Below are positions 1 through 14,354 of a stretch of 64,000 nucleotides of DNA, piece by piece. This DNA comes from Tahibacter harae (GTDB lineage Bacteria > Pseudomonadota > Gammaproteobacteria > Xanthomonadales > Rhodanobacteraceae). Numbering within the stretch: position 1 is the first letter of the stretch; each line of letters begins with the position of its first letter. Position numbers and translations under genes: made by a program. The stretch lies in contig NZ_JANFQO010000014.1 of NCBI RefSeq assembly GCF_024437735.1, positions 1 through 64,000 on the forward strand, given 5' to 3'. The notes below the pieces were generated by a model. The model worked only from the letters and a program-made list of their open reading frames with translations. It was not told the origin of the DNA and did not search any database.

Positions 1-191
1 GACGGATGCGTCGTCGTCCAGCCCGGCACCAGCGCCTCGGATACCTGGAAATAGCAGTTCGACGGCGCCGCACTCGGCAGCTCGAAGCCCAGGTTGACGA
101 AGGTGCGTTGCACCTGGGCCAGCACCGGCACGGCGGCCAGCACGCCCAACACGCCGGCGAGCAGACGCCGGGACACAGTACCACCACGCAT
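1..191 (-). CDS. N-terminal ~63 aa of a secreted protein; the gene continues past the window start
   Basis: Minus-strand ATG at 189-191 preceded by a GGGGGTAAG RBS-like motif. Translation MRGGTVSRRLLAGVLGVLAAVPVLAQVQRTFVNLGFELP... has a typical signal peptide. Absent from the ORF track because there is no in-window stop. Confidence 0.4.
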   Translation of the reverse strand, partial: MRGGTVSRRLLAGVLGVLAAVPVLAQVQRTFVNLGFELPSAAPSNCYFQVSEALVPGWTTTHP

Positions 192-1195
192 GGCTTACCC
201 CCTGAAAAATCGGCCACGCACATCCAGTGCGTGGTCCGCATCCACTGCGATGACAGAAGCAAACCTCTCAGCCTGCTCTGTCTCCGGCGGCATCGGCACC
301 AGTCCACGGACCGGCGCCCATGACGCCATCTCTGCCTTGCAGCCACCAACTCGGCCCGCCGGGCGGCCGGCACTTTGTTTTCCTTACGACGGACCAGACA
401 TGCTTTCCCCCCGAAAGAGATCGGTGGACCGAACCGTTCCACGACGCCTGGCCACGACACAATCCCGAACCGGATCGACGAAAGCGGAAAATCGGAGCCG
501 AACCAGACCGACCGGAACCAGTGAAGGAAGCGGGGCTGGAAAAGCAATTAAGGAACCACCGCCAACACCGCACACGTTTGATGCGGCGATCGCAACGACC
601 GGTGTATTGCAACGCATCGCTGTCTCGCCGATGGCGACAGCGGTCTGGTTGAAGTGAGCATTCGGCGCCCGGGCGGGAGCGGTGCCGTAGGTACGGCAGG
701 CGCCGACAAACCATTGCCGGCGTCGGGCCGGCGCTGCGACAAACTACGATCCTTGCGGGATCGCCCGATGTCCTGGGTGAGGTTACATCCTGAGACGGAC
801 AAGCGTAAAGCGAAGTTCACGCCTGACCGAAAAATTCCCTGCCTCACAAAAACTCACACCCGCTGCGTATGCCAGGGCGTGCAAGCAGTCGGCGCGATAA
901 AGGCGCGCACACAACACTGAAGAGAAACTCGGCAGACACACCCGAATTGCGCAAAACTCCGATACTCGCGCTCAAACGACAACGGTGTCTTTCGGGTGCA
1001 GCGCTGTCGAAAAAAAAAAAGACCCCCTTCAACAAGACACCCGCTGTCGCCCTCAGACCGCCGGACAGATCAAAGACCACGGCCGGCGCCGGCGATCGTA
1101 TCGGCAGCCCGACGCCAAGCAAGCGGCGATGCGGCATAAGCCATCCGAACCGACAGCAATCGATGCTTCCGCCGGCACAGGGCGCTGCCGGCAGT

Positions 1196-4100
1196 TCAAC
1201 TCTTGCCCAGGCGCTTGACCAACATATCCAGACTGGTCCGCACCGTACGCACCTGTTCCCACATGTCATGGTCCAGCGTCATCTTGTGATGCAGTGCGGA
1301 GACCAGGGGCAACAGGGTTTCCTCGTAGGCCTTGGCCATGCGCGCCAGCGTCTCGTTCAGTGCCGGCGGCATTTCCAGGCGCGGCTCGCGCTGCAGGCTG
1401 GTCTGGATATCGGCCAGGCTGCGCAGGGCCTCCAGCGCGCCCAGCGCGTCGCCCAGGCCCTGGCTGTGGGCGCCCTGTTTTTCCAGCTGCACGGCGATCT
1501 CGGCCAGGGTCTGCGCCATGCGCGTGGCGCCGTCGGCGTCCTTGCCCCCCTGCTTGGCAAGGCGGCGGAAGTTTTCCACTAGTTCGTTCCACCGCGCCTG
1601 CTCGGCAGCATCCGGCGCGCCGATCAGCTGCGACAGCTTGAGCAGGTTTTCTTCGGCGCGGGCGCCCAGGGTCTGGGCTTCGCCGCGGTAATGGTCGCGG
1701 ATCAGCGAATCGAGTTCCGCGGGCGTCAGCAGTGGGCTGAGCTGGGCGGCAAGCTTGACCATGTTGCGATAGCTGCCCTGCAGCTTGAACGGCGGTTCGC
1801 TGCGGTAGGCGTCGTCCTGGGCGGCACTGGCGACATAGGCGGCGTTGACGCGCATCAGCACGTCGCGCACGCCGACCATGCGGCGCACCAGCTCCAGCAT
1901 TTCCAGGCCGCCGGGCAGTTCGGCCGGGATTTCTTCCTCGCCGCCACGCGCGGCACGCAGCACGGCCTGAATTTCCGTGCGCGGCCGCTCGGCCAGCGGC
2001 GCGCTGAGCGGGTTGGCGGTCAGCGCGTTCTCGATGTAACTGTCGGCGAACAGCGCCTCGCGCCCGCTCAGCACATCGCCGAGGTTGTAGACATCGGCAC
2101 GGTTGGCCAGCATGTCGGGAATGCGGAACACCTCGCCGGATTCGGTATACGGATTGCCCGCCATCACCAGGGCGAAGCGCTTGCCGCGCAGATCCAGCGT
2201 GCGCGCCTCGCCGTCGATCACGGCATCGATGCGCCGGGTACCGTCGGCCAGGCTGATGAACTTCTGCAGGAACTCGGCCGAGAGGTGCTGGATGTCGTCC
2301 AGGTACAGCATCACGTTCACGCCCATGGCGAGACCGAGGTTGAGCTTGACCAGTTCCTCCGCCGCGCCGCGCTGGCTCACGCTGGCCGGATCCAGCGAAT
2401 TGACCTCGTGGCCCAGGGTCGGCCCGTTCACGCGCACGAAGATCATGCCGAGGCGGTCGGCGATGTATTCCATCAGCGTGGTCTTGCCGTAGCCCGGCGG
2501 CGAGATCAGCAGCAGCAGGCCGGAACGGTCGCTGCGCGCGTCGCCGACGCTGCCGATCTGCTTGGCCAGGTTGTTGCCGATCAGCGGCAGGTAGACCTCG
2601 TCGATCAGGCGGTTGCGCACGAAGCCGGCCATGGGCTTGGCCAGGAAGCGGTCCAGGCCCAGGCGGCGGCGTTCGTCCTCGACCAGGCCGTGGCGCAGGC
2701 GGGCAAAATCGTGCCAGGCGCGCTCGCCGTTTTCCGCGTGCGCGGCGAGGCGGGAGAGGAACTCGGGCAGGTCCAGCCGCAGCACGCCATCGCGCAGGCG
2801 CGCATGGGCGCCGCGCAGGCCGCTCACGTCCACCGCCAGTTCGGCATTGATGCGTTCGCGCGGCAGATCGGCGAAAGCGAGGATGGCGCCGGCTTCCAGC
2901 GCCACGTCGGGCTGCTCCGGCGCCAGGCGCGCGCACCACTGGCGTGCCAGGTCCAGGCGCTCGGCGGCGGAGAGTTCGGACTGCAATGCGGCCAGCGCGC
3001 TGCGCGGCAGTTCGCTGCCCGCACGCGCCGCCAGATCCAGCGCAGCGGAATGCGCGGCGAACTGGGCGCGCTCGCCGCCGAGGCTGGCAACCAGGTGCCG
3101 CGCCGCCGTCTGCGCCTGCGCTTCGCTGGCGGCGAAGCCCAGTTGCTGCGCGCAGCTCTGCAGGCCGCTCAGCCAGCTCGCCGGCAGCGGTACGGCTTCC
3201 TCGCGCTGCAGGAACCAGTGCAAGCCGGCGGCGTGCGCGCGCAGCGCGGCCTGGGCCTGTTCGCGCTGCGCCGCGTACCAGGCCTGGGCCAGCACGCGCG
3301 CCGCAGCGGGCTGGCGCAGTTCGCCCGCAGCCACGGACAGGCGCGCGAGTTCGCGCAGGATGGCGGCGGCGTCCACATCGTGCACGCCGCGCTGGTAATC
3401 CTCGCTGGGACGGCGCTGGGCTTCGGCCGCGACAGCATCGATGAGCACCTGCGCATCGGCGGCGCGCAGCGCGTCACGCAGGGCTGCATCGCCGGCTTCG
3501 ATGCGGCGCCACAGTAGCGCGGCAAGGAATTCGGCGCGGTAGATCTGCGCGGTTTCGTTGGGCAGCGGCTGGCCCCAGACGCTGCGGTAATTTTCGGCGC
3601 GCGCGTCCTGCACGCGGCGGCGGTAGTCGGTACCGGTGAGCTGCAGCGCAAGGCCGTCGCTGTCGTGCAGCAGGGCCAGATCCAGCGTGCCGCGTTCGAT
3701 GCTGAAGCGATGCCGCCCCAGCGCCAGCGCGGCGCCGCTGGTGCCCAGCTCGTTGCGGTCGCGCAGATCGCGCAGGCCGGCTTCCTTCAGCGCGCGCAGG
3801 CGGCCGGCCAGTTCGTCGGCGGCCACGGCCTGGCCTATGCCGCGCAATTCCTCCAGCTGGCGCTGGGCGCGTTCGATCAGGGTGTCGCCGGCGAAGAAGG
3901 CGTGCAGCTCCTCGGCCACGCCGATCTTGGCCACGCGCCGCGGCACGCCGTCGAGCACGCGGCCTATGGCTTCCTTCAGCGCCTGGGCGCGCTTGTCGCG
4001 CTGGCCGGCGATCTGCTCGCGCCGCGCGGCAAAGGCTTCCAGCGCGCTTTCCCGGCGCGAGGTGAGTTCGACCAGGAAATCCGGCTGCTCGCCGAAGCGC

Positions 4101-6274
4101 GCTTCCAGCTGTTCGATCTGGCTCAGCACCTGGGCCAGGCCGGCATCGGCGCTTTCCGGCGTGTCGCAGCGGCCGAGCAGGTTGAGCACGGACTGCTCCA
4201 GCACCGTGAGCTGGGCGCCGAACTCCAGGCCCTGTTCCTGCACCAGCAAGGTTTCGCGGCGCGCGCGCAAGGCGGCGCGGATGCGGTTGACCTCGGCGTA
4301 GAGCTGCGAGGTTTCGCCGAGCAGCGCGGCGCGCTGCTGCGCGTCGCTCTGCTCGAAACCGGCGATCAGTTCGGACAGGCCATCCAGCGATTCGGCCAGC
4401 GCATCGAGCTTCTCCGCCACCGGCGCCAGCGCCGCGGTGGTGCGCGCATCGTTGACCGCCGCGGCACTGTCGGCCAGACCCTGGCGCAGCGTGGCGAAGG
4501 CGGCCGGGTCGGCGAAGAATTTCAGCGCACGCGCGCCGATGCGCTCCAGTTCCTCGCGCAGGCGCGCATCCAGCGCGGCGATGGCGGCGCCGTCCACATG
4601 CGGCTGTTCGCCCATCACGGTGAGTTCGCCGCGCTTGCGCTTGAGTTGGCGGATGGCGTCGGTGAAATCGTCGGGCTTCTGCCACAGCAGGCTGGCCACG
4701 CGCGAGAGCAGCTCGGCCACGGTCTTGCCGGCGGCGGCGACCAGCTGGGCCGCTTCGTTCTGCGCGCGCTCCAGTTTCTCGTAGGCGTTCAGCGCCTCGC
4801 GGCCGCTGCGCGCCAGCGTCGCGACTTCGCTGCCGATATCGCCGACTTCGGCCTCGCCCAGCCAGGGATAGGCGTCGCTGCAGCGCGCCGCCACGCGCAG
4901 CAGGCGCTCGTAGGCGCCGCGGCTGCCGGTGTCCTCGGCCAGGCGGCGCAGTTCGCGCAGTTCGGCCAGGGCGCGCACCACGGTCGCATTGCCCAGGCGG
5001 CCGAGCAGGCCGGCCACGCGCGGCTGTGCGCTGGCGTATTCCTCGAACGCGAACGGCGTGCGCCACAGCTGCATGGTGTGCAGGCGCGAGGCCTGGTCCG
5101 GCGCTTCAGGCGTAATCAGCAGCACGCGGCCGTCGGCAAAGCGCGCGTAGCCGTTGCCCAATAGCGGCTGGCTCATGCTGCGTTCGATCAGGTTGTAGGA
5201 CAGCAGCGCATAGCTGCCGCCGACCGGCTCGTAGAACACGTACAGCATGTCCTCGCCGCTGGGCGCGCGCAGATGGCGCTTGATGCGGTAGCCGGAGAAA
5301 TCATGGCCCAGTTCGGCGAAGCGCTTGAAGTCGCCGGATTCCAGGTAGTAGCCGCCCGGGAAAACCAGGCCATGGTCTTCCGGCAGCTGCAGGCAGGAGG
5401 CGCCGATCTCGTCGATGCGCACCACCGACTTGAGCCGCTTGTTGAACACCAGGTAGCGCGTGGTGTCCTCGCGGTACGGCTTCACGCGCAGCAGGATCAG
5501 GCTGCGCAGGTCGGCGTAGGCGACTTCCGCGTCAGCCAGCGACTGGTTCCTGTCCTCGACCGGCTCGCTGTAGATGCCCAGCCCGGTCTCGGTATTGTTT
5601 TCCACCTTTATCGTCAAATCGCCGGCGACGGTCTCGACGAAGACGCTGTCCAGCACGTTGATGTGCGGATGCCGTCCCAGCACATACTGCTCGCGCGTTA
5701 CCGGCGTCCATTCGAAATCGTGGCTGGGCGGCAGCACGTGCTCGCGGTCGCCGCGGTTGTCGATGTAGCTGACCTTGCCGTCGCGCTCGATGGCGAAGCG
5801 GAACACGCGCTTGTCGCCGGCCTGGGAGCCGGTGCGGAACACCAGCAGCAGGCGCTCGTCCAGCACGCGCAGCTGGTCCAGCGTGGTGGCGCGGTAATAG
5901 GTGAACAGTTCGCGGAAATCCGCCGCGAAGCGCGCATCGGCAAGGAAGGAGCCTTCCAGCGGCAGCGGCACCAGTTCCTGCCCTTCCGCGCCCTCGTCCA
6001 GGCGGTAAAGGCAGAACACGTCGCCGACCGCAGTTTCCTTCTTCAGTCCGATGAACACGTTGTAGCCGAACAGCAGCACCTCGCCGACGCGCACGATATC
6101 GCGCGCGACGCAGTTGTTTTCGGTGCGTGCGGCCAGGCGCGCTGCCAGGCGCGATTCGACCCGGCCGAAGGCCTCCACGCGCCGGGCGTTGAGCGCCTCG
6201 GCCTTGCCGTGCAGGGTCTCGGCCGCGGCGACCAGGCGCTTGCGCAGCAGTTCAAAGGTGGCGGAATCGGACAT
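1196..6274 (-). CDS. Giant (~1692 aa) protein with a MoxR/McrB-type AAA+ ATPase core; last gene of the flotillin operon; function unknown
   Basis: Long ORF 1196..6376, start trimmed to the ATG at 6272-6274 (MSDSATFELLRK...) with an AAGGGA RBS. Walker A LLLISPPGYGKTTLMEY, Walker B MLYLDDIQH and a sensor-1-like VMAGNPYTE are in the C-proximal third. A long A/L/R/E-rich helical region precedes them. The N-terminal ~450 aa has ordinary composition and no recognised domain. Confidence 0.8.
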   Translation of the reverse strand: MSDSATFELLRKRLVAAAETLHGKAEALNARRVEAFGRVESRLAARLAARTENNCVARDIVRVGEVLLFGYNVFIGLKKETAVGDVFCLYRLDEGAEGQELVPLPLEGSFLADARFAADFRELFTYYRATTLDQLRVLDERLLLVFRTGSQAGDKRVFRFAIERDGKVSYIDNRGDREHVLPPSHDFEWTPVTREQYVLGRHPHINVLDSVFVETVAGDLTIKVENNTETGLGIYSEPVEDRNQSLADAEVAYADLRSLILLRVKPYREDTTRYLVFNKRLKSVVRIDEIGASCLQLPEDHGLVFPGGYYLESGDFKRFAELGHDFSGYRIKRHLRAPSGEDMLYVFYEPVGGSYALLSYNLIERSMSQPLLGNGYARFADGRVLLITPEAPDQASRLHTMQLWRTPFAFEEYASAQPRVAGLLGRLGNATVVRALAELRELRRLAEDTGSRGAYERLLRVAARCSDAYPWLGEAEVGDIGSEVATLARSGREALNAYEKLERAQNEAAQLVAAAGKTVAELLSRVASLLWQKPDDFTDAIRQLKRKRGELTVMGEQPHVDGAAIAALDARLREELERIGARALKFFADPAAFATLRQGLADSAAAVNDARTTAALAPVAEKLDALAESLDGLSELIAGFEQSDAQQRAALLGETSQLYAEVNRIRAALRARRETLLVQEQGLEFGAQLTVLEQSVLNLLGRCDTPESADAGLAQVLSQIEQLEARFGEQPDFLVELTSRRESALEAFAARREQIAGQRDKRAQALKEAIGRVLDGVPRRVAKIGVAEELHAFFAGDTLIERAQRQLEELRGIGQAVAADELAGRLRALKEAGLRDLRDRNELGTSGAALALGRHRFSIERGTLDLALLHDSDGLALQLTGTDYRRRVQDARAENYRSVWGQPLPNETAQIYRAEFLAALLWRRIEAGDAALRDALRAADAQVLIDAVAAEAQRRPSEDYQRGVHDVDAAAILRELARLSVAAGELRQPAAARVLAQAWYAAQREQAQAALRAHAAGLHWFLQREEAVPLPASWLSGLQSCAQQLGFAASEAQAQTAARHLVASLGGERAQFAAHSAALDLAARAGSELPRSALAALQSELSAAERLDLARQWCARLAPEQPDVALEAGAILAFADLPRERINAELAVDVSGLRGAHARLRDGVLRLDLPEFLSRLAAHAENGERAWHDFARLRHGLVEDERRRLGLDRFLAKPMAGFVRNRLIDEVYLPLIGNNLAKQIGSVGDARSDRSGLLLLISPPGYGKTTLMEYIADRLGMIFVRVNGPTLGHEVNSLDPASVSQRGAAEELVKLNLGLAMGVNVMLYLDDIQHLSAEFLQKFISLADGTRRIDAVIDGEARTLDLRGKRFALVMAGNPYTESGEVFRIPDMLANRADVYNLGDVLSGREALFADSYIENALTANPLSAPLAERPRTEIQAVLRAARGGEEEIPAELPGGLEMLELVRRMVGVRDVLMRVNAAYVASAAQDDAYRSEPPFKLQGSYRNMVKLAAQLSPLLTPAELDSLIRDHYRGEAQTLGARAEENLLKLSQLIGAPDAAEQARWNELVENFRRLAKQGGKDADGATRMAQTLAEIAVQLEKQGAHSQGLGDALGALEALRSLADIQTSLQREPRLEMPPALNETLARMAKAYEETLLPLVSALHHKMTLDHDMWEQVRTVRTSLDMLVKRLGKS

Positions 6275-6463
6275 GGCTATCCCTTGCTGGGCTGCGGCTT
6301 TCGCGGCGGTGGTTGCGCGGCGAAGGCCGGCGGGAAACAGCATCTGGCCGGAACCGCGCCGCCCGGGCGCCGGCACCTGCGGCGCGCGGCCGCGGGGCTT
6401 CCGGCATTCCCGTCACGGCCGCGCGCCGGCGCAGACCTCAGCGTTGCGCGGCAGCGGCGCCGT

Positions 6464-8518
6464 TCACGCGCCGTCGCCGCTCAGGCGCTTGAGCGTCTCC
6501 ACGTCGCCGTGGCGTCCGGAGGCGGTGAGCTTCTGCATCAGCCCGGCGATGGAAAGATCGCGCACCGCATCGGCGCCGCCCAGCGCGGCGATCAGCTCAC
6601 GCGCATCGGCGATCAGGTCGCGCTTGCCGGCCTTGTGCTCGGCCAGGGCGGTGCTGAGCAGGTCGCTCTTGTCGACGGTGCCGTCGATGGCCTTGCCCAG
6701 GCTCAGGCTGCGCATGAAGCGCTCGAAGTATTCGCCGTCGCCGCCGACAATCTCGATCTTGGCCGCACCCAGCGCCTTGGACAGCACTTCGGCCTGCTCG
6801 CGCGCGATGGCCTGGTTGGCCTCGATGCTCTTGAGGCGCTGCGCGTGCGCGTAGTCCAGCTGCATGCGCTGTTCCTCGTGGGCGCGCGTGTCGGCGCTCA
6901 TCGCCTGCATGGCTTCAAACTTGTCCTTGAGGCCGCCGGCTTCGGCCGCGAAGCGCGCGGCGATCGCCGCGGCTTCGGCTTCGCCGTACTTGAGCTTGCC
7001 GCTGGCTTCGGCTTCCAGCTTCAGGCGCAGCGCCTCGGCCGTGGCCGCGCCCTGCTTGGAGATGGCGTCGGCCTCGGCGATCTGCACCTTGGCCGAGACC
7101 ATGCCGGCCTTCTCGTCCGCATCGGCCTTGGCCAGGGCGACCTTGGCGGCGGCCAGTCCGCTCGCGGCGGCCAGCGCCTCCACGCCTTCGGCTTCGCGCT
7201 TCTTGCCTTCGGCGGTCTTGCTGGCGATGGCCAGGCGCGCCTCGGCCATGGTGAGTTCCTCGGACGCCTTGTGCTTGGCGCGCTGCTCGTCGGCCAGCGC
7301 GGTCTTCACTTCGGTGATGAACTTTTCTTCCGCCTGGCCTTCGGCCAGCACGATGGTGCTCTTCTTGGTGCGCTCGGCCTCGGACAGGGTGCGCAGGTTC
7401 TTGATCTCTTCTTCCTGCTCGGCCACGGTGCGCTCGACCACGATGCGCTCGCGGATCACGTCGGCGATGGCCTTCTTCTGCACTTCGACGGCTTTTTCCT
7501 TTTCTATGCGCTGCAGCGTGACTTCGCGCTCGCGGTCGACCACTTCCAGCTCGCGCGCGCGGGTGACTTTCTCTTCCTCGATGGCGACGGCGCGCTGGCG
7601 GTTCTTCTCCGCCACCTCGGCCTCGCGCTTCATGTTCTCGGTCTGCACCGCGATCTGCTGTTCGGCCAGCAGGCGCGCCGCCTCGGCCTTGGCGCGCTCT
7701 TCGGAGGCGACCTTGGCCGCCTCGGCTTCCTCACGCGCGCGGGTGATGGCGATTTCGCGCTGCTGGTTGGCTTCGGCATGGGCCTTCTGCCGTTCCAGCT
7801 CCAGCACGGCCTCGGCCGTCTCCACGTCCTTCTTCTTGATGCGCATTTCCTCGTTGCGGCGCAGCTCGTTGGTGAACACGTTCTGCTCGGCGGTGAGCTC
7901 GGTGATCTTCTTGATGCCCTGGGCGTCGAGGATGTTGTGCGGATCGAGCTTTTCCAGCGGAGTCTGCTCAAGGTAGTCGATGGCGGCATCCTCCAGCACA
8001 TAGCCCGAGAGTTCATCGCCGATCTGGCGCACGATCTGGTCGCGGAAGCGGTCGCGCGCCTCGTACAGGTCGACGAAGTCCATGGCCTTGCCCACGGTCT
8101 TGAGCGCTTCGGAGAACTTGGCGCTGAACAGGTCTTCCAGCGTGGCCTGGTTGCTGGCGCGCTCGCAGCCTATGCCCTGGGCCACGCGCAGCACGTCCTC
8201 GCGGGTCTTGTTGACGCGCACGAAGAATTTCACCTTGATGTCGGCGCGCATGTTGTCCTTGCAGATCAGGCCTTCCTTGCCCATGCGCTCGATCTCGATG
8301 GTCTTGAGCGAAATATCCATCACCTCGCGCCGGTGCAGCACCGGAATGACCAGGCGGCCGGTGAAGGTCACTTCCGGCTCGGCGCGCATGGTGTTGACGA
8401 TCATGGCGCGGCCCTGGTCGACCTTTTGATAGAACTTGGCCACGACGGCCATCAGGGCGAGCACGGCGAGGGCGACGAGCACGACGACGACGATCAGCGT
8501 GGTGACTGTGATATCCAT
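6464..8518 (-). CDS. Flotillin / SPFH (band 7) domain protein, YqiK-like
   Basis: ATG at 8516-8518. N-terminal TM helix (TLIVVVVLVALAVLALMAVV), an SPFH domain, then a very long E/A/K/R-rich coiled coil and a flotillin-type C-terminus. Sits directly downstream of an NfeD-like gene, as yqiJ-yqiK does in E. coli. Confidence 0.9.
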   Translation of the reverse strand: MDITVTTLIVVVVLVALAVLALMAVVAKFYQKVDQGRAMIVNTMRAEPEVTFTGRLVIPVLHRREVMDISLKTIEIERMGKEGLICKDNMRADIKVKFFVRVNKTREDVLRVAQGIGCERASNQATLEDLFSAKFSEALKTVGKAMDFVDLYEARDRFRDQIVRQIGDELSGYVLEDAAIDYLEQTPLEKLDPHNILDAQGIKKITELTAEQNVFTNELRRNEEMRIKKKDVETAEAVLELERQKAHAEANQQREIAITRAREEAEAAKVASEERAKAEAARLLAEQQIAVQTENMKREAEVAEKNRQRAVAIEEEKVTRARELEVVDREREVTLQRIEKEKAVEVQKKAIADVIRERIVVERTVAEQEEEIKNLRTLSEAERTKKSTIVLAEGQAEEKFITEVKTALADEQRAKHKASEELTMAEARLAIASKTAEGKKREAEGVEALAAASGLAAAKVALAKADADEKAGMVSAKVQIAEADAISKQGAATAEALRLKLEAEASGKLKYGEAEAAAIAARFAAEAGGLKDKFEAMQAMSADTRAHEEQRMQLDYAHAQRLKSIEANQAIAREQAEVLSKALGAAKIEIVGGDGEYFERFMRSLSLGKAIDGTVDKSDLLSTALAEHKAGKRDLIADARELIAALGGADAVRDLSIAGLMQKLTASGRHGDVETLKRLSGDGA

Positions 8519-8656
8519 GGCGCTGGCTCCGGCAACAAGTGGTATGCGTTTACGTCAGGTTTTTTCTGCGCGCCGTGCAGGGCGTGCAAGGGATGAGGCG
8601 GCACCGCGGCCCGCCGGCGTTCCTGCATGAACGCCGCAGCGGGTGGTTTGCGAACG

Positions 8657-9280
8657 TCAGGGCGGATCGAATTCGGCCACCAGGTAACGCTTGCGTCCGG
8701 CATCGAAGTCGATGATCAGTGCCTGCGCATCGCGCGCCAATCGGTTGGGGACGCTGGCGTAGACCTGCAGGGTCAGGCGGGTGCCGTCGCCCATGTCCAC
8801 CTCGGCCTGGCCGAAATTCTCCTCCACGCTCAGGGTCAGGATGCGGCAGCGCTTGCCCAGGGCCGATTCCCGCGTCGCCGGAGCATTCACGGCAAACAGC
8901 GGCTTGAGGGGCCGCAGCGAGAACGCGGCGAGGAATACCGCGGCGACCAGCGCCGCCGCCAGCAGCACGGTGCCGCCCAGCCATACCGGCAGCGGCACCA
9001 GCGGCAGCAGCAGGTTCGCCGCGAGCATGGTCAGCAGCCACCAGTACAGGCCGATGGCACTGATCACGATGGAGAACGGCAGGCGGTCGAAACCCAGGGC
9101 GAGCACGGTCTCGGGCAGGCCGTCGACATCGCCGGCGTCATGGCCGCCTATCCAGTCCGGGCCCACGCTGTCGAAATCCAGCAGGCCGACGATGGCGGCC
9201 AGCCAGAACACCAGCAGCACGCCGATCAGGATGCTGGGCACGAAGGCCGGATACTGGGTCAGCAATTGGATAAAGCTCAT
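8657..9280 (-). CDS. NfeD/YqiJ-like membrane protein (TM helices plus a C-terminal OB-fold-like beta domain)
   Basis: ATG at 9278-9280. About three N-terminal TM segments and a C-terminal beta-rich segment (GKRCRILTLSVEENFGQAEVDMGDGTRLTLQVY...). Placement immediately upstream of the flotillin gene matches the NfeD-flotillin pairing. Confidence 0.7.
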   Translation of the reverse strand: MSFIQLLTQYPAFVPSILIGVLLVFWLAAIVGLLDFDSVGPDWIGGHDAGDVDGLPETVLALGFDRLPFSIVISAIGLYWWLLTMLAANLLLPLVPLPVWLGGTVLLAAALVAAVFLAAFSLRPLKPLFAVNAPATRESALGKRCRILTLSVEENFGQAEVDMGDGTRLTLQVYASVPNRLARDAQALIIDFDAGRKRYLVAEFDPP

Positions 9281-9633
9281 GACTTCACGGTCCTCTTGCC
9301 GGAACGGGTCTTGCGGTGTTTTTCTGCGAACGCGACCAGCGCGGCGCCGACGCGCTCCTTGATGGCCAGGTGATCCCCCGGGTCCAGACCATAGCGCGCG
9401 GCGAGCAGTTTGTAGTCATCCTCGCTCAGGCTCACGGTCAGGCGCGGCCGCTTGGCCTGGCGCAGCAGCGGCAGGCCAAGCACCACGCGCACCTGGTCGG
9501 AATTGGACAGGTTGGCCTCGTAGGCGGCCGCGCGCACCGCCTGCAGCACGGCCTCGGTCACGTCGAAGGCCACCTGGACGGCGCGCAAGGCGGGCTGCGA
9601 GGAACGCCAGCGGCTGGGCAGCTCAGTCTTCAT
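9277..9633 (-). CDS. Hypothetical 118-aa protein (possible RHH-like DNA-binding or adaptor protein)
   Basis: Internal ATG at 9631-9633 (MKTELPSRWRSS...). The upstream part of ORF 9277..9867 is Pro/Arg-rich junk. Overlaps the upstream gene by 11 nt and the NfeD gene by 4 nt, implying translational coupling. Protein composition looks globular. Confidence 0.5.
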   Translation of the reverse strand: MKTELPSRWRSSQPALRAVQVAFDVTEAVLQAVRAAAYEANLSNSDQVRVVLGLPLLRQAKRPRLTVSLSEDDYKLLAARYGLDPGDHLAIKERVGAALVAFAEKHRKTRSGKRTVKS

Positions 9634-10282
9634 CGCGCCTGCCTGGCCGCCGCGGCGGCAGTTTTTCCAGCGCGGCCAGTACGCGGCTGGTGCGGGCGCG
9701 GCGGAAGCCCTTGGGGGCGGGATTCGGGATTGGGGATTCGGGATCGGAAGGCGATGGCTCCGGCCTGGCCTTCTTCTTCGTGCTGACGGAGCCGGGCTTG
9801 GCGGCGGCCGGCCGGGTGGACGCGGGCCTGGCAACCGCGCGTGTGGCGCGGCGGCGCGCGACGGCATCGGTGGCCTGGCCCAGGGTGCTGGCGGCGCGGG
9901 CCATGTCCAGGTCGTGGTCCAGTTCGCGCAACTGGCGGCTGACTTCGTCGTGCAGCAGGTCGAGCTGGGCCAGGTGGGCCTGGAAGCCGCCGGCCAGGCC
10001 GCTGTCGCGGGCGATGGCGCGGGACAGGTCGAGCAGGCGGGCGTGGTAGCGCGGATGCGGCTGCGGCGCGCGGGTCAGCGCCTCCAGCTGGGCCTGGGCA
10101 CGGGCCAGGCGGCGCGCGACGGTCTCGGCGCGGCCGCGGGCCTGGGCCAGTTCGCGCGCGGTGCGGCTGAGCAGCTGGCGGGCCTGGCGCAGCGGTGCCG
10201 GCGCCGCCTCCGGCGCGGACCGGGCCGGGGTTGCGCCCAGGTCCTGGCGCAGCATGTCGCGGATGTCGTCCCACCAGGCCAT
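9623..10282 (-). CDS. Coiled-coil protein, tentatively PspA/IM30 (ESCRT-III-like) family, with a low-complexity heptamer-encoded C-terminal tail
   Basis: ATG at 10280-10282. Residues ~30-140 are heptad-rich and predicted helical (ARGRAETVARRLARAQAQLEALTR...). The E. coli yjfI-yjfJ (pspA-like) pair has the same arrangement with the upstream gene. The C-terminus (SDPESPIPNPAPKG) is encoded by the GGGATTC-type repeat at 9716-9747. The family call is weak. Confidence 0.5.
   Translation of the reverse strand: MAWWDDIRDMLRQDLGATPARSAPEAAPAPLRQARQLLSRTARELAQARGRAETVARRLARAQAQLEALTRAPQPHPRYHARLLDLSRAIARDSGLAGGFQAHLAQLDLLHDEVSRQLRELDHDLDMARAASTLGQATDAVARRRATRAVARPASTRPAAAKPGSVSTKKKARPEPSPSDPESPIPNPAPKGFRRARTSRVLAALEKLPPRRPGRRDED
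9716..9747. repeat. Imperfect GGGATTC heptamer repeat inside a coding region
   Basis: gggattcgggattggggattcgggatcgg. Same unit as the intergenic arrays at 34794-34868 and 34988-35013. Confidence 0.6.
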
Positions 10283-10291
10283 GGCAGTTCC

Positions 10292-10717
10292 TCAGACCAG
10301 GAATTCGGCCAGCGTGGTCAGCGCGTCGCGGCCGTTGTCGCCGAGGGTGGCCAGTTCCAGGGCCATGTCAGCGGGCGAAGCGGCGGGACTCAGCGCGCCG
10401 ACCAGGACGAAATGCGCGCCTATGCGCCCGAACGAGGACAGCGGCACGGCGGGATTCAGGTCGAGCAGGGTTTCCATCAGCTTTGCGCGCAGGCGCGGCT
10501 TCACTTCGTCGTCGCGCCAGAGATAGCTGATGCACAGCAGCTGGCTGCCGGTATCGGTGACGTAGATGGGCAGGCGGTCGCTGCCCGGGAAGCTGATCTC
10601 GATGACCGGCACTTCGCCGGCGATGGGGATGGCGTCGACAGCGTCCACCAGGATCTGCCGCTTGAGCAGCGGCACGGCGGACTTGATCAGCGTGGCCAGA
10701 CGGCGCGGGCTAGGCAT
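10292..10717 (-). CDS. Hypothetical 141-aa protein, possibly YjfI/YbjN-like; first gene of the operon
   Basis: ATG at 10715-10717 (MPSPRRLATLIKSAV...) preceded by a GGAGGGGGAG RBS. The longer ORF-track start has no RBS. Globular composition. Sits 10 nt upstream of the PspA-like gene. Confidence 0.5.
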   Translation of the reverse strand: MPSPRRLATLIKSAVPLLKRQILVDAVDAIPIAGEVPVIEISFPGSDRLPIYVTDTGSQLLCISYLWRDDEVKPRLRAKLMETLLDLNPAVPLSSFGRIGAHFVLVGALSPAASPADMALELATLGDNGRDALTTLAEFLV

Positions 10718-10774
10718 GCTCCCCCTCCCGGGATGCGATGCAGCGGTTGCGGCATGCGGCGACGCTATGCCGGC

Positions 10775-10804
10775 GGACATAACATGTCAAGACATATTAT
10801 GTCC
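10775..10804. promoter_or_regulatory. AT-rich near-perfect inverted repeat (candidate operator) in the promoter region of the flotillin operon
   Basis: GGACATAACATGTC aa GACATATTATGTCC: 14-bp arms with one mismatch, 58-87 bp upstream of the ATG at 10717. Unusually AT-rich for a ~70% GC genome. Confidence 0.4.
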
Positions 10805-11336
10805 GCGGATGGGATCCGCGGTGCGGTTGTGGAAACGCCCTCGCTCCCGGTGCGTGCCGCGCCGGGAAAAACCCGCGGCAGGAAAGCGGTGCCCGGCGCC
10901 AGGCGTCGTCGGGGCGGCGCGCGCCGCGCCGGGCGGGCCGGATGCGCGGCGGCCGCACGGCTGCGAAAGCGGAACGGACTGCATCCACCCCATCGGAAAA
11001 CGGTGCCGCGGCGGGCCGTAGCGGCCGCCCGGAATACGCAGTGAAGAAGATCCCGCGCGCGGCTGCCCGAGTGCAGCCGCGCGGCGGGAGGCGCCTGGGC
11101 CGTTGCAGCCCGTCGCCCTGACCCCGGAGGAAGCCGCCGCAGCGGCCCGGCGGCGCTCCGCCGTCAGCCTGCCGCGCGGTGCCGGCGGCGACGCCGGCCG
11201 CAGCTCCCCGTGTCGTTATTTCTTGCCATTGCGCAAACGCGCAATTTTCCCCAACCCCATTTCATCGAGAGGCAAGGAGCGCGCGGCGGCGGTGGCCAAA
11301 ACACCGCCGCCGCGCACCCCTCACATCATCCGGCAA

Positions 11337-11594
11337 TCAGTTGTGCAGACGGGCCGCGTCCACGTCGGCGCGAATCCAGGCGTTGGCCGCCGTGATCGCG
11401 GCTTCGCGCGAGGCGACGATGCCCGAGGCGGAAACCGTACGCAGCCACGGGCGGAACACCTTCCAGCGCAGCGGGGTCGTCGGCGTCCCTTCGACGATGA
11501 CGCGGTAGCCCAGACGCCGGTAGGCGGCGACGCGCTGCAGGCGCGGGCGGCGTCCGGCGTTCATGACAGTGTGCATATCGGGAATGCGGTACAT
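11337..11594 (-). CDS. Small hypothetical protein (85 aa)
   Basis: Isolated ORF in an otherwise gene-poor ~1.1-kb stretch. Protein-like composition (MYRIPDMHTVMNAGRRPRLQRVAAYRRLGYRVIVEGTP...). No recognisable family. Confidence 0.3.
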   Translation of the reverse strand: MYRIPDMHTVMNAGRRPRLQRVAAYRRLGYRVIVEGTPTTPLRWKVFRPWLRTVSASGIVASREAAITAANAWIRADVDAARLHN

Positions 11595-11809
11595 GGCGCT
11601 ACTTCCTTAGCTAGAACCGACCTGGGTCGGCATGTACAACCAGCAAAAAACCCCGCTCGCATCAAAATCCAGGCAACAGGCGTCCCTCGTGGCGCGCACG
11701 AAACCATTCCCAGGAGGGAGAGCGGGGAAGCGCCGCCCCTGCGGCGCTCTAGTTGCCTGGCACCGCGCCTGCTTCCGCCGTTTCGGCGGCCGCGGGCGCG
11801 GGGGTCAGG

Positions 11810-13360
11810 TCATTTGCAGGAAAGCGTGTTGCGTCGGCAGTCCTGGCTGCGGCGTTGCGGATTGGCCATGCTGTAGTTCGCCATCACGCCAGGGTTGGCA
11901 TTGTTGTTGACATAGTTGACGGCCGCGAAACCGATCACCGGCAGGCCCAGCATCACGGTGCCGTCTTCGGCCGGGCGGAAATCGCGCGTATAGACAGCGC
12001 CGCTCGTGTCGCGATAGCGCACCAGGTCCAGGCCTATCCAGCCGCCGTCGCGGCGGCTGCCGCTGAGCACCGACTGCAGATACACGTCCAGCTCCGAGCC
12101 CAGCGGGCGGCCGTGGATGTCGTTGGCGACCTGGCCCGGCGCAAGCGCGATGATCTGGGTGGAGAAGCGCAGATCGACGCTGGCCACGTTGGGCGCGTTG
12201 GCGATGTTGCCGCCGCCGCGGTCGTACAGGCCGTAGGGCACGCGCATGATCGCGCTGGTCTCGCTGCCGCTGGTCGGGTACAGGCCGGTGAAGGGCTTGA
12301 CCGGTTCGGTGCCGACGCGGGCCTGGTCGGTGTAGAAGGAACGGGTCGGGAAATTGATCACCCAGTCGGTGGTCGCGCCGACCGTGTGGTCGCTGAAATA
12401 GCTCACGTTGACCGCATCGGCCGACAGCACCGCACTGACCGCGTCCACCGCGCGCTCAGCGGCGTATTGCAGGTTGAGGCGGCGGTTGGGCAGGTCGACT
12501 ACGGCTTCGGCCATCTGCGTGGCCGGATCGTTCAGCGCCTTGTCGAAATCCACGCGCTCTTCCGCCGTGCGGTGCAGCACCACGCTGGAGCGGCTGCCGG
12601 CGGGCACGTCGGCCGGATCGGTGCGGAAATCCGCCAGCGCCGTGGCCTGGTAGGACATCACCGTGCCGGCGCCCACATTCAGCACATAGGCTTCGCCGCT
12701 GAGGCCACCGGTGGGATTGGTCATGTGCGCGGAGGGATTGCTGCGCCAGTAGGTGCTCCAGCCATTGCCCAGTTCACCGCAATTGGCCGGCACGCCGCTG
12801 GCCGCGGGCGTGATCGCCAGCGCCGGCGGGGTGTTCGGCACCAGGGTGCCCATCTCGAACACCTTGATGAAGCCTTCGCGCAGGCGGTCCTTGACGCTGG
12901 GACCGGCGTCCTCGCGCGAACCGACGAAATCGTTCATGCGCAGATCCTGGTACGGACGGCCGCCGACCAGTACGCCGGCAAAGCGCTCCGCGCCCGGGAA
13001 GGTGCAGGAATCATCGCCCGTGGCCAGTGCGGCCGGGGTCGAATCGTTGAGGTAGAACACGGTCGAGGACCAGCTATCGCGCGGCGCGAGATAGACATTC
13101 AGCTCCAGCGCCGTGCGGCCGTTGCGCGCCTCGGCGAGGATCACGCGCAGCGCCTTGTGCCGGTCGGAATGGTTGGTGATGGAGAAAACCGTCTGGTTGC
13201 CGCCGCGCGTGGTGTAGTACGGATAGATCAGCACCTGGCCGGTGCCGTCCGGATCCAGCCGTACCGCGCTGGCACTGCTTGCGCACACGCCCAGGGCCAG
13301 CGCCGCGAGCAGGCGGCCGGTCAGGCCCGATGTACGCAAAGTGGTGTTTTTCATCGTCAT
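11810..13360 (-). CDS. Secreted protein of unknown function (~516 aa), divergent from the TonB/ECF cluster
   Basis: ATGACGATG start at 13358-13360 with a GAAGG RBS. Signal peptide MTMKNTTLRTSGLTGRLLAALALGVCASSASA. Long, Gly/Thr/Ser/Asn-rich beta-type composition. No motif recognised. Confidence 0.7.
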   Translation of the reverse strand: MTMKNTTLRTSGLTGRLLAALALGVCASSASAVRLDPDGTGQVLIYPYYTTRGGNQTVFSITNHSDRHKALRVILAEARNGRTALELNVYLAPRDSWSSTVFYLNDSTPAALATGDDSCTFPGAERFAGVLVGGRPYQDLRMNDFVGSREDAGPSVKDRLREGFIKVFEMGTLVPNTPPALAITPAASGVPANCGELGNGWSTYWRSNPSAHMTNPTGGLSGEAYVLNVGAGTVMSYQATALADFRTDPADVPAGSRSSVVLHRTAEERVDFDKALNDPATQMAEAVVDLPNRRLNLQYAAERAVDAVSAVLSADAVNVSYFSDHTVGATTDWVINFPTRSFYTDQARVGTEPVKPFTGLYPTSGSETSAIMRVPYGLYDRGGGNIANAPNVASVDLRFSTQIIALAPGQVANDIHGRPLGSELDVYLQSVLSGSRRDGGWIGLDLVRYRDTSGAVYTRDFRPAEDGTVMLGLPVIGFAAVNYVNNNANPGVMANYSMANPQRRSQDCRRNTLSCK

Positions 13361-13538
13361 ACCTTCGTTGTTCCCGCTACAGCGCCCCGGACCGGCGGGC
13401 CGTGCTCCTGCAATCAACCACACAAGACGCACGGCGCGGCCAATCCCCCCAACACGTTACTTTCCCGCAAAACCACATGCATTTTTAGCGGCACTATGGC
13501 TAATATCCGCCGCCAGTTCCGTAGCAGTCACGCCAGCG

Positions 13539-14354
13539 ATGCCGAGTTCGTCATCCAACGCCGCGCATTTCTTCCTGCTCGCAACGCCCGAGACTCCGCT
13601 TGCCGACGCCGCCGTTCCCGCGTGCGCGGGCGCGCGTGATGCCGTCTTCGCGGTGACTGCGGCGGTCGAACCGCGTCGTCCGGTGGCCGCCGCCCTGCTG
13701 ATTTCCGTACTGCTGCACGCTGCCGCCGGCCTGCTGCTGTGGCAGTGGATCGCCGACTTCCAGCCCGATCCCGAAAAGCCCGCCCTGCAGGTGCGCCTGC
13801 GCGCCGGCGGCGCTCCCGTTCCGCCGCCGCTGGCGCAGACCGCGCCGCAGGCCCTGCCGGCGCCGCCGCCGCCCAGGCCGGTGGCCGCCTCCCGTCCCCA
13901 GCCCGCCCCGCGCCAGCTGGCGGAGACTGCCACAACCCCGCCGCCGTTGCCTGCGGCCGCGTCACAGGAACCGGCCCCGGTGGAAGCCCTGCCGCAGCCG
14001 GCGCCGGCACTCAGCGCAACGCCGCTGCCCGGCACCGCCGTGGCCGACACCGGCGAGGCCGCGGTCAACAACGCCACCCTGCGCGTACTGGAATGGCTGG
14101 CCCAGCACCGGCGCTATCCGGCCTCGGCCCGGCGCGCACGCATGCAGGGCACGGTGGAAATCCTGGTCGTGCTGATGCCCGACGGCCGCCTGGTCAACCA
14201 GCGCATCGCCCAGAGTTCGGGCCACGAGGTGCTGGACCGGGCCGCGATGGACCTGCTGCGCCGCGCCTCGCCGGTTCCCAGCGCGGCCTTCTTCACCGGC
14301 GAGGCGCGCCAGCTCGAACTGCGCCTGCCCGTGGTCTACCAGCTCAGCATCTGA
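13539..14354 (+). CDS. TonB family energy-transducer paralog
   Basis: ATG at 13539-13541. N-terminal TM anchor (AAALLISVLLHAAAGLLLW), a Pro-rich spacer (PAPPPPRPVAASRPQPAP...) and a C-terminal TonB domain (NATLRVLEWLAQHRRYPASARRARMQGTVEILVVLMPDGRL...). Confidence 0.8.
   Translation: MPSSSSNAAHFFLLATPETPLADAAVPACAGARDAVFAVTAAVEPRRPVAAALLISVLLHAAAGLLLWQWIADFQPDPEKPALQVRLRAGGAPVPPPLAQTAPQALPAPPPPRPVAASRPQPAPRQLAETATTPPPLPAAASQEPAPVEALPQPAPALSATPLPGTAVADTGEAAVNNATLRVLEWLAQHRRYPASARRARMQGTVEILVVLMPDGRLVNQRIAQSSGHEVLDRAAMDLLRRASPVPSAAFFTGEARQLELRLPVVYQLSI

Follow-up and report, generated by a model that had tools for sequence, protein, structure and literature searches.

We analysed a 64-kb window (the whole stretch of DNA under study) of Tahibacter harae, in which six consecutive, co-directional open reading frames (ORFs), g1 to g6, are all read from the minus strand in a region with a G+C content of ~70 %. 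Judged by its sequence, the cluster belongs to a known proteobacterial class that combines DUF2170/YjfI (CesT-like), PspA (YjfJ), YqiJ/NfeD-like, YqiK-type flotillin and beta-propeller AAA+ proteins, and it is the same system as bacABCDEF of Pseudomonas aeruginosa. We consider this identity, taken jointly with a general role at the membrane, highly likely. The genes are the following:

10292-10780 (longest ORF) or 10292-10717 (supported), minus strand: g1, 141 amino acids (aa) from the ATG at 10717
9623-10282, minus strand: g2, 219 aa
9277-9633, minus strand: g3, 118 aa, small and basic
8657-9280, minus strand: g4, 207 aa
6464-8518, minus strand: g5, 684 aa
1196-6274, minus strand: g6, 1692 aa from the ATG, 1726 aa from an upstream GTG

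The gap between g1 and g2 is 9 nucleotides (nt), g2 and g3 overlap by 11 nt, g3 and g4 overlap by 4 nt, and gaps of 138 nt and 189 nt precede g5 and g6, respectively. A terminator scan gave no terminator-like sites on the minus strand inside the cluster. The longest ORF of g1 begins at an ATG at 10780 that falls within the promoter/operator described below. The real start is most likely the ATG at 10717, because it is preceded by the Shine-Dalgarno sequence GGGAGGGGGA (10730-10721, minus strand) and because of the N-terminus of the closest homologue, encoded at locus L013 of a Rhodanobacteraceae metagenome-assembled genome (MAG). The arrangement is far beyond chance, since the identical gene order is found again in dozens of genomes. 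A preliminary description of this DNA had reported six co-directional genes with the same overlaps and gaps; all ORFs are present and the junctions agree. Five of the six gene identities given there (YjfI-like, PspA-like, NfeD/YqiJ-like, flotillin, AAA+) also hold, some by sensitive tests only, and the attribution of the AAA+ protein to the MoxR type is not supported.

The operon class was described by Ravi, Anantharaman, Aravind, Gennaro et al. (mSystems 2024, PMC11237479; bioRxiv 2020) as a combination of CesT/Tir-PspA, band-7/flotillin, YqiJ/YuaF and beta-propeller AAA+ genes, and all five defining components are present in T. harae in the conserved co-directional order. In P. aeruginosa, a “biofilm-associated cluster” was first defined as PA3732-PA3729 (Mace 2008, PMC2587700) and was extended by reverse transcription PCR and proteomics to six co-transcribed genes, bacABCDEF (Wallart 2024, PMC10948618). 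These correspond to PA3732-PA3727 and to PA14_16140-16200 (PMC2587700, PMC10948618), with BacD being the flotillin PaFlo3 and BacC a short NfeD protein (PMC13086221). The order DUF2170 (BacA), PspA-like (BacB), YqiJ-like (BacC), flotillin (BacD) and giant ATPase (BacE) is shared with T. harae, and the genes are likewise co-directional and tightly spaced. The comparative-genomics operon and the bac cluster are one system because locus L023, from Pseudomonas morbosilactucae, starts with a gene that exceeds the cut-off of the NCBIfam BacA equivalog (344 vs 300 bits) and continues with PspA_IM30, YqiJ-like, flotillin, giant ATPase and PLDc_2 genes, in this order.

The preliminary description had considered the combination undescribed, a fusion of three independent membrane modules into a new machine. 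It was right that E. coli keeps yjfIJ (4.41 Mb) and yqiJK (3.19 Mb) at separate loci, and no giant ATPase gene lies next to yqiK. However, the operon has been described explicitly (PMC11237479), has been defined experimentally as bacABCDEF (PMC10948618) and is widespread, and we give almost no credence to the proposal of a new fusion.

The six proteins

Pfam identifies g1 as DUF2170 (1.3e-24, above the gathering score), and BLASTP aligns it with E. coli YjfI (6e-7). The DUF2170/YjfI family was placed in the CesT/Tir chaperone superfamily by Ravi et al. (PMC11237479), and a CesT/Tir-like fold is seen in the published crystal structure of BacA. Against the NCBIfam BacA equivalog NF050185, g1 reaches 26.8 bits (cut-off 300), over model positions 96-194 only, because it has no counterpart of the N-terminal extension (~60 aa) of the Pseudomonas proteins. 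These scores identify g1 as a DUF2170 protein, not a BacA equivalog.

The second protein starts with a helical core of ~145 aa, which gives way to a tail rich in Pro, Ala and Arg in place of C-terminal helices, and has at its C-terminus a basic motif, PGFRRARAxRVIDxLQxLPxRRP, that is conserved in the family. It has no Pfam match, even at E 10 (the gathering score of PspA/IM30, PF04012, is 33.9 bits), and a precomputed PF04012 match was found for 0 of its 48 homologues. PspA or Vipp1 structures were not found by a PDB profile search, pairwise BLASTP against YjfJ was not significant, and neither was the family profile against the single E. coli YjfJ or PspA sequence (E 0.26 and 0.13). The earlier claim that this 219-aa protein is PspA-like is borne out by comparison of profiles. 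Built from either 2 or 30 sequences, the g2 profile matches operon proteins at the same position (hhalign 93-94 %, E 2-3e-7) in an alignment that is collinear from residue 1 to ~146, and controls with unrelated coiled coils and a reversed profile gave E 0.03-0.9. The position of g2 corresponds to PspA_IM30-positive genes in 30 other loci; the proteins of L023, L003 and L028, the three that were scanned, match PspA_IM30 at 2e-49 to 4e-13. All source-named homologues of g2 are from Tahibacter or other Rhodanobacteraceae, and in the nearest database relative g2 is 83 % identical, compared to 97 % for g3 and 85 % for g6. We interpret g2 as a truncated, fast-diverging derivative of PspA/YjfJ, recognizable by remote homology only. 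It may be unannotated in the T. harae record, since no full-length identical entry was found in the database search. In L013, the closest related locus, the homologues of g2 and g3 (5232-6734) share a frame and are not separated by a stop codon; this may reflect a fusion, or an internal Met may serve as the start of g3. This is unlike T. harae, where g2 and g3 overlap in different frames.

A transmembrane segment in a hydrophobic N-terminal half and a C-terminal beta domain are read from the sequence of g4. Neither g4 nor its Pseudomonas counterpart matches a Pfam family at E 10 (NfeD, PF01957, and the YqiJ family DUF1449 included), and pairwise BLASTP of g4 against YqiJ was not significant. 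A profile of 70 positional orthologues of g4 aligns with E. coli YqiJ collinearly, residues 53-192 against 52-192 (hhalign 92 %, E 5.9e-7), and YqiJ and YuaF are NfeD homologues according to nuclear magnetic resonance (PMC2636767). Based on this alignment and the published structural link, g4 can be assigned as a short NfeD-like membrane protein of the YqiJ/YuaF type.

From the N-terminus onwards, the predicted product of g5 comprises a transmembrane helix, an SPFH/Band-7 domain, a long coiled coil rich in Glu and Ala, and a C-terminal domain. It aligns with E. coli YqiK over 446 aa (BLASTP 9e-37, 27 % identity), which identifies it at the sequence level as a YqiK-type flotillin. Scanned at full length, g5 gave no match in Pfam or NCBIfam, as was the case for g2, g3 and g4, and none in a PDB sequence search; Pfam Band_7 was found in g5 (7.6e-11, residues 32-176) only when the N-terminus was scanned alone. 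The whole flotillin was probably missed because of its coiled coil, ~350 residues rich in Glu, Ala and Lys, a point to bear in mind when this flotillin family is annotated automatically.

The last gene encodes a giant protein, g6, that is 100 % identical to a T. harae protein named “DNA repair ATPase” by NCBI. By gene position and annotation, it corresponds to P. aeruginosa BacE (PA3728 / PA14_16190), which is annotated as the same “DNA repair ATPase” type. The following parts can be distinguished:

4715..6274, minus strand: residues 1-520, AlphaFold2 model
4253..4501, minus strand: DUF7902 segment (Pfam), within a helical middle region of ~650 aa
2144..2515, minus strand: AAA+ core (Pfam AAA, AAA_22, AAA_5 and RuvB_N matches)
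2480-2494, minus strand: Walker A, GYGKT (sequence)
2294-2299, minus strand: the two Asp, residues 1326-1327, of Walker B, LDD (sequence)
2153-2155, minus strand: sensor-1 Asn in AGNP (sequence)

The large N-terminal region had been described as devoid of recognizable domains. Instead, Pfam reports DUF3686 (E 6e-176) and DUF7902 (3.8e-17), and the architecture is common to >4000 homologues. The AlphaFold2 model of residues 1-520 is confident (predicted local distance difference test, pLDDT, 83.5; predicted template modelling score, pTM, 0.81). It predicts an N-terminal helix (residues 7-36), a propeller-like beta domain (43-404) of about seven four-stranded sheets, and helices (411-519) that would form a bundle packing with helix 7-36.

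That the C-terminal part carries an AAA+ core was already proposed from the GYGKT, DD and AGNP motifs, which are indeed present and are invariant in 12 homologues (48-75 % identity). Pfam AAA and AAA_22 score above threshold, and Foldseek matches of the model of residues 1160-1692 (pLDDT 63.7) comprise FtsH, RuvB, NorQ, CbbQ, spastin and Lon, with probabilities of 0.97-1.0 for the best eight AAA+ matches. Sequence and motifs thus identify g6 as a member of the AAA+ superfamily. Comparison of the g6 profile with seven E. coli AAA+ proteins by hhalign gave the following ranking:

RuvB: E 2e-9, 70 columns, around the P-loop
ClpX: E 1.6e-7, 214 columns
Lon: E 1.6e-6, 130 columns
FtsH: E 4e-6, 40 columns
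McrB: E 3.7e-5, 22 columns
PspF: E 1e-4, 71 columns
RavA (MoxR representative): E 0.0027, 11 %, 77 columns, the weakest of the seven

From these alignments, the nearest E. coli relatives of g6 would be the protein or DNA remodelling motors ClpX, Lon and RuvB. The earlier assignment to the MoxR type is not supported: AAA_5 stays below its cut-off (21.0 vs 22 bits), Pfam reports no AAA_3 match in g6, and RavA comes last. Pfam scans of the cluster proteins showed no VWA protein. NorQ and CbbQ are present among the mixed Foldseek matches obtained with the low-confidence AAA+ model. Proteins of the classical AAA clade, to which Vps4 belongs, match g6 weakly and only in the Walker A region. A low-confidence beta hairpin modelled before sensor 1, together with the matches to ClpX, Lon and RuvB, points away from the classical clade.

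Conserved partners of the giant ATPase

Relatives of g6 are encoded at no fewer than 558 loci (at least 558, counting one genome per species), of which the best 80 were kept. They come from Beta-, Gamma- and Zetaproteobacteria, Myxococcota, Actinomycetota, Planctomycetota and a Clostridia MAG, i.e. from at least five phyla. YqiJ-like and flotillin genes, the former right before the latter, are found directly upstream of the ATPase gene, on the same strand, in all 69 loci whose upstream flank is 3.2 kb or longer; three Nonomuraea loci are counted here as having flotillin genes, their apparent lack being a coordinate artefact. DUF2170 and PspA genes come only as a pair, which 31 of 68 loci have, all of them in Beta- and Gammaproteobacteria; g3 is present in 12 of the 80, and in 11 of these it lies between the genes for PspA and YqiJ. 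The six genes, presented earlier as one unit, are therefore co-conserved in part: YqiJ, flotillin and ATPase form a conserved core, and the DUF2170-PspA pair is a proteobacterial add-on. Abbreviated flotillin-YqiJ(-ATPase) operons were noted previously to be more widespread than those containing PspA (PMC11237479), and our survey of 80 loci reproduces this. ATPase identity is 70-85 % across Tahibacter species and ~50 % across Burkholderiales, with stable synteny.

This distribution bears on what the ATPase acts upon. Ravi et al. drew an analogy to Snf7/Vps4 for PspA-associated AAA+ ATPases (PMC11237479), and g6 could accordingly be seen mainly as a Vps4-like ATPase that disassembles or recycles the polymer of the PspA-like (ESCRT-III-fold) protein, with flotillin and YqiJ only marking the site. 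The 31 proteobacterial loci that have PspA and ATPase genes in one operon agree with this, as does the relationship of g2 to PspA. However, 37 of the 68 loci, including all sampled Actinomycetota and Myxococcota, have the ATPase with flotillin and YqiJ and no adjacent PspA, and the ATPase is never seen without flotillin/YqiJ (69/69). Furthermore, g6 has no MIT-like domain and is predicted to have a propeller at its N-terminus, and in Tahibacter it is the PspA partner that is truncated and fast-diverging while the ATPase is well conserved. Since the triad is the core and the PspA pair the add-on, flotillin/YqiJ is favoured over PspA as the primary partner of the ATPase, and we regard the Vps4-like role as unlikely.

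The gene following that of the giant ATPase differs by lineage and encodes a phospholipase D (PLD)-like protein in 13 loci, a rhomboid protease in nine and TelA in nine:

PLD-like (PLDc_2 / NucT-like HKD): L008, L009, L020, L023-L025, L027, L033, L035, L037, L039, L043, L062
Rhomboid intramembrane protease: L021, L025, L027, L035, L038, L039, L043, L049, L057
TelA: L028, L037, L045, L051, L052, L054, L061, L071, L072, in Stenotrophomonas, Lysobacter and related genera

It is plausible that these are partners at the membrane or in envelope stress. Homologues of the three are absent from the T. harae window.

These neighbours also have to be considered in judging the name of the ATPase. Both NCBI and the Pfam description of DUF3686 (“ATPase involved in DNA repair”) would make g6 a DNA-repair ATPase with incidental membrane-gene neighbours; RuvB gives the best E. 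coli hhalign score, though only over 70 columns around the P-loop, and a PLD/NucT-like gene comes next after the ATPase gene in the 13 loci listed. On the other hand, Pfam and NCBIfam detect no nuclease, helicase or DNA-binding domain in g6, the linkage to YqiJ and flotillin is constant (69/69), and DUF3686 is mentioned by none of the papers in the library searched, which thus yielded no experimental basis for the name. In Ravi et al., the PLD partner is an HKD hydrolase of a membrane system (PMC11237479). With no DNA-related domain, constant flotillin/YqiJ neighbours and no DUF3686 paper in the library searched, the two names are without visible support, and a role in DNA repair is very remote.

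The preliminary description also suggested an envelope-stress defence module, which can be extended to an anti-phage or abortive-infection system acting at the membrane. Defence systems often include large P-loop ATPases and PLD-like nucleases, PspA was originally discovered through its induction by phage, and the PLD partner of some loci is weakly similar to DrmC of DISARM (38.7 bits, cut-off 133). Yet PADLOC-DB 2.0 returned only DndD and IetA, at E 0.005 and over the coiled coil and P-loop, and the conservation of the ATPase with stable synteny suggests vertical descent rather than an island. In the tested flanks, judged by ORFs and Pfam, neither defence nor mobile-element genes were recognized, and there is no PLD gene in the T. 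harae window. With marginal PADLOC matches only, we rejected a defence role, which we consider very unlikely, if a little less so than DNA repair.

Promoter, putative operators and flanks

Promoter and putative operator elements lie upstream of g1, with GGACATAATATGTC-TT-GACATGTTATGTCC on the coding strand:

10762..10803, minus strand: promoter and putative operator (sequence reading)
10803-10791, minus strand: palindrome 1, GACATAATATGTC, 13 bp, GACAT-N3-ATGTC
10790-10785, minus strand: -35 box TTGACA, perfect
10788-10776, minus strand: palindrome 2, GACATGTTATGTC, 13 bp, GACAT-N3-ATGTC, overlapping the -35 box
10767-10762, minus strand: -10 box TAGCGT, after a 17-nt spacer from the -35 box

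The two palindromes are the only GACAT-N3/4-ATGTC sites in the whole 64-kb window. In 1.71 Mb of related loci, GACAT-N3-ATGTC occurs 17 times, and 16 of these sites are in the promoter window of a DUF2170 gene; the palindrome-bearing promoters are among the related loci labelled L003-L066. Of the 12 loci with g3, 11 have the motif ahead of their DUF2170 gene, compared to 0 of the 18 DUF2170 loci without g3. A sigma-54 promoter was considered and rejected for this operon: TGGC-N8-TGC is absent from the coding strand at 10700-11200, where no -24/-12 site but TTGACA-N17-TAGCGT is found.

The 550 proteins of the orphan family that includes g3 have no Pfam domain; two UniRef entries of the family carry the name “ribbon-helix-helix CopG domain”. 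Pfam gave nothing usable on its fold, a PDB profile search returned a designed-repeat artefact only, and the best E against PHROGs was 0.03. By hhalign, there is no likeness between the two halves of g3, as an internal ribbon-helix-helix (RHH) repeat would give, nor between g3 and the N-terminal extension of BacA. Because g3 co-occurs with GACAT-N3-ATGTC palindromes over the -35 box, it is likely a local autorepressor of the operon, from an uncharacterised DNA-binding family. We infer that it acts at the palindromes, and that it would serve as local repressor in Tahibacter and Burkholderiales alike.

A different arrangement is found at loci of the Pseudomonas type (L021, L023-L027, L029, L034, L035, L038, L043, L050; the promoter of P. 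aeruginosa itself is outside the sample). Their BacA proteins have a conserved N-terminal extension of ~60 aa, SSAHYQRxFRQRLRxQGLVKKEVWILPE, and their promoters have at least two [TC]ACATGT[AG]A repeats (TTACATGT type) flanking a TTGA box ~100 nt upstream of the bacA-like gene. Such repeat pairs are present in 11 of 13 loci with a Pseudomonas-type BacA and in 0 of 17 others. This suggests that BacA itself binds DNA through its extension, and so does the job of g3 in Pseudomonas. In P. aeruginosa, deletion of bacA raises BacB-F 6- to 13-fold (PMC10948618), which places the bac operon under local negative control. A repressor function of the extension would account for this rise, and sequence comparison suggests a DNA-binding BacA as a simpler account of the derepression than the chaperone or sigma-54 scheme that has been proposed. 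The crystallised BacA comprises 139 residues only, and the published domain analysis names DUF2170 alone.

At the other end of the operon, the transcript most likely terminates at a run of 11 T (1010..1020, minus strand), ~175 nt downstream of the g6 stop codon. The support is weak: no convincing stem precedes the run, and folding of 1040-1200 is no better than that of shuffled sequences (z -0.6). Further terminator-like sites on the minus strand were reported by the scan at 732-716 and 234-214. The segment downstream of the operon (1-1195) has a G+C content of 62 % vs ~70 %, and its ORFs have no Pfam matches and no relatives in related loci. No Rfam families were found in 1-12000. On the promoter side, ORFs at 11100-13640 on either strand have no Pfam match, and an ORF with a TonB C-terminal domain (13242-14354, plus strand, 4.6e-16) is located ~2.5 kb beyond the operon promoter, on the opposite strand.

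A possible mechanism and its relation to known systems

We infer, as does the literature, that the cluster encodes an ATP-dependent system for membrane maintenance or remodelling. By analogy to other SPFH proteins, the flotillin and its NfeD-like partner would build a cage or microdomain on the cytoplasmic side of the inner membrane. The giant ATPase would oligomerise through its AAA+ module, bind the flotillin assembly or its clients by means of the propeller and the helical N-terminal two-thirds, and use ATP to remodel, load or dismantle the assembly or the clients. With the CesT-like g1 as a chaperone that holds it or passes it on, the PspA-like protein could polymerise on stressed membrane at these sites and thereby add membrane-repair capacity. 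Transcription would start from the sigma-70-type promoter, whose -35 box is covered by palindromes that g3 may bind as a local repressor.

Several observations weigh against parts of this scheme. The physical link between ATPase and flotillin is drawn from gene neighbourhood only, and a PaFlo3 mutant has a ~20 % effect on biofilm and no other phenotype (PMC13086221). In g6, Walker B has an invariant Asp-Asp, not Asp-Glu, and ATP turnover may therefore be slow or regulatory. At the pore-loop position (residues 1285-1289, ~2390-2410) there is an invariant Gly-Pro-x-Leu-Gly-His with no aromatic residue, so that classical substrate threading may be doubtful, and confidence in the AAA+ model is low (pLDDT 63.7). 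PspA-like polymerisation may likewise be doubtful for g2, which is without the C-terminal part of PspA. With respect to regulation, the -10 box TAGCGT is weak and a consensus promoter scan reported nothing, and a DNA-binding (RHH) fold could not be shown for g3.

In light of these points, g6 as a “flotillin remodeller” is a tentative reading, to which we would give somewhat less than an even chance. The same caution applies to the wider proposal, which we see as possible rather than probable: that the DUF3686 AAA+ protein is the dedicated, obligate ATP-driven partner of YqiK-type flotillin/NfeD across phyla, that the PspA pair is a later add-on, and that g3 and the BacA extension are two lineage-specific binders of related ACAT...ATGT palindromes. 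The linkage of ATPase and flotillin/YqiJ in 69 of 69 loci raises the question of AAA+ action on flotillin assemblies; if true, it would provide a mechanism, a “motor”, for bacterial flotillins.

The operon class itself is already known, and the T. harae copy is an ordinary member of a mechanistically unsolved system. New here are the tie between g3 and the GACAT-N3-ATGTC palindromes, which is a correlation only, and the truncated, fast-diverging PspA of Tahibacter. The correlation of operator and regulator provides a convenient entry point for induction or derepression of the operon. The analysis also unifies the “biofilm-associated cluster”, PaFlo3 and the “CesT-PspA-flotillin-AAA+” operon, which have a poorly connected literature, as one system, the ATPase of which continues to carry the wrong label, “DNA repair ATPase”, in public annotation.

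Compared to the class of Ravi et al., T. harae differs in features that are unmentioned there, i.e. the g3-type small protein, its operators and the truncated Tahibacter PspA. A phospholipase-D-family gene is sometimes part of the operon in some Proteobacteria (PMC11237479) but is absent from the T. harae window. Differences from the bac operon are more numerous. The T. harae g1 is without the N-terminal extension of BacA and fails the equivalog (26.8 vs 300 bits), g3 is inserted between the PspA and yqiJ genes, and g2 is truncated and unseen by Pfam. No counterpart of a sixth gene (bacF) was recognized in T. harae, as judged by homologues of the PLD-like, rhomboid and TelA genes of other loci; related Pseudomonas loci have PLD-like and/or rhomboid genes after the ATPase gene. 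A sigma-54 site has been proposed for bacA, whereas T. harae has a sigma-70-like promoter with other operators. Local negative control would be common to both, as deduced for T. harae from its promoter.

In E. coli the related genes are dispersed. The flotillin g5 resembles YqiK (9e-37), g4 and g2 are related to YqiJ and the YjfJ family, respectively, at the profile level, and g1 is a DUF2170 protein as is YjfI. In contrast to T. harae, no giant ATPase gene follows yqiK, and yjfIJ are within the polyamine-related operon yjfKLMC.

Two further types of system share elements with the cluster. In ESCRT-III/Vps4 and PspA/PspF, too, an ESCRT-III-fold protein is encoded beside an AAA+ protein, and negative feedback via a partner is plausible. 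Here, however, g6 has no MIT domain, and PspF-type sigma-54 activation is absent in T. harae, which has no -24/-12 site. HflK/C-FtsH and QmcA-YbbJ are cages at the inner membrane in which an SPFH scaffold has an NfeD protein, an AAA+ machine or both as partners. Such SPFH cages with AAA+ (HflK/C-FtsH) and NfeD (QmcA-YbbJ) partners are cited in PMC13086221. In contrast to FtsH, g6 has no transmembrane segment or protease domain, is three times larger and carries a propeller. HflK/C-FtsH and QmcA-YbbJ are the best structural precedent for a possible mode of action of the triad of flotillin, NfeD-like protein and AAA+ ATPase.

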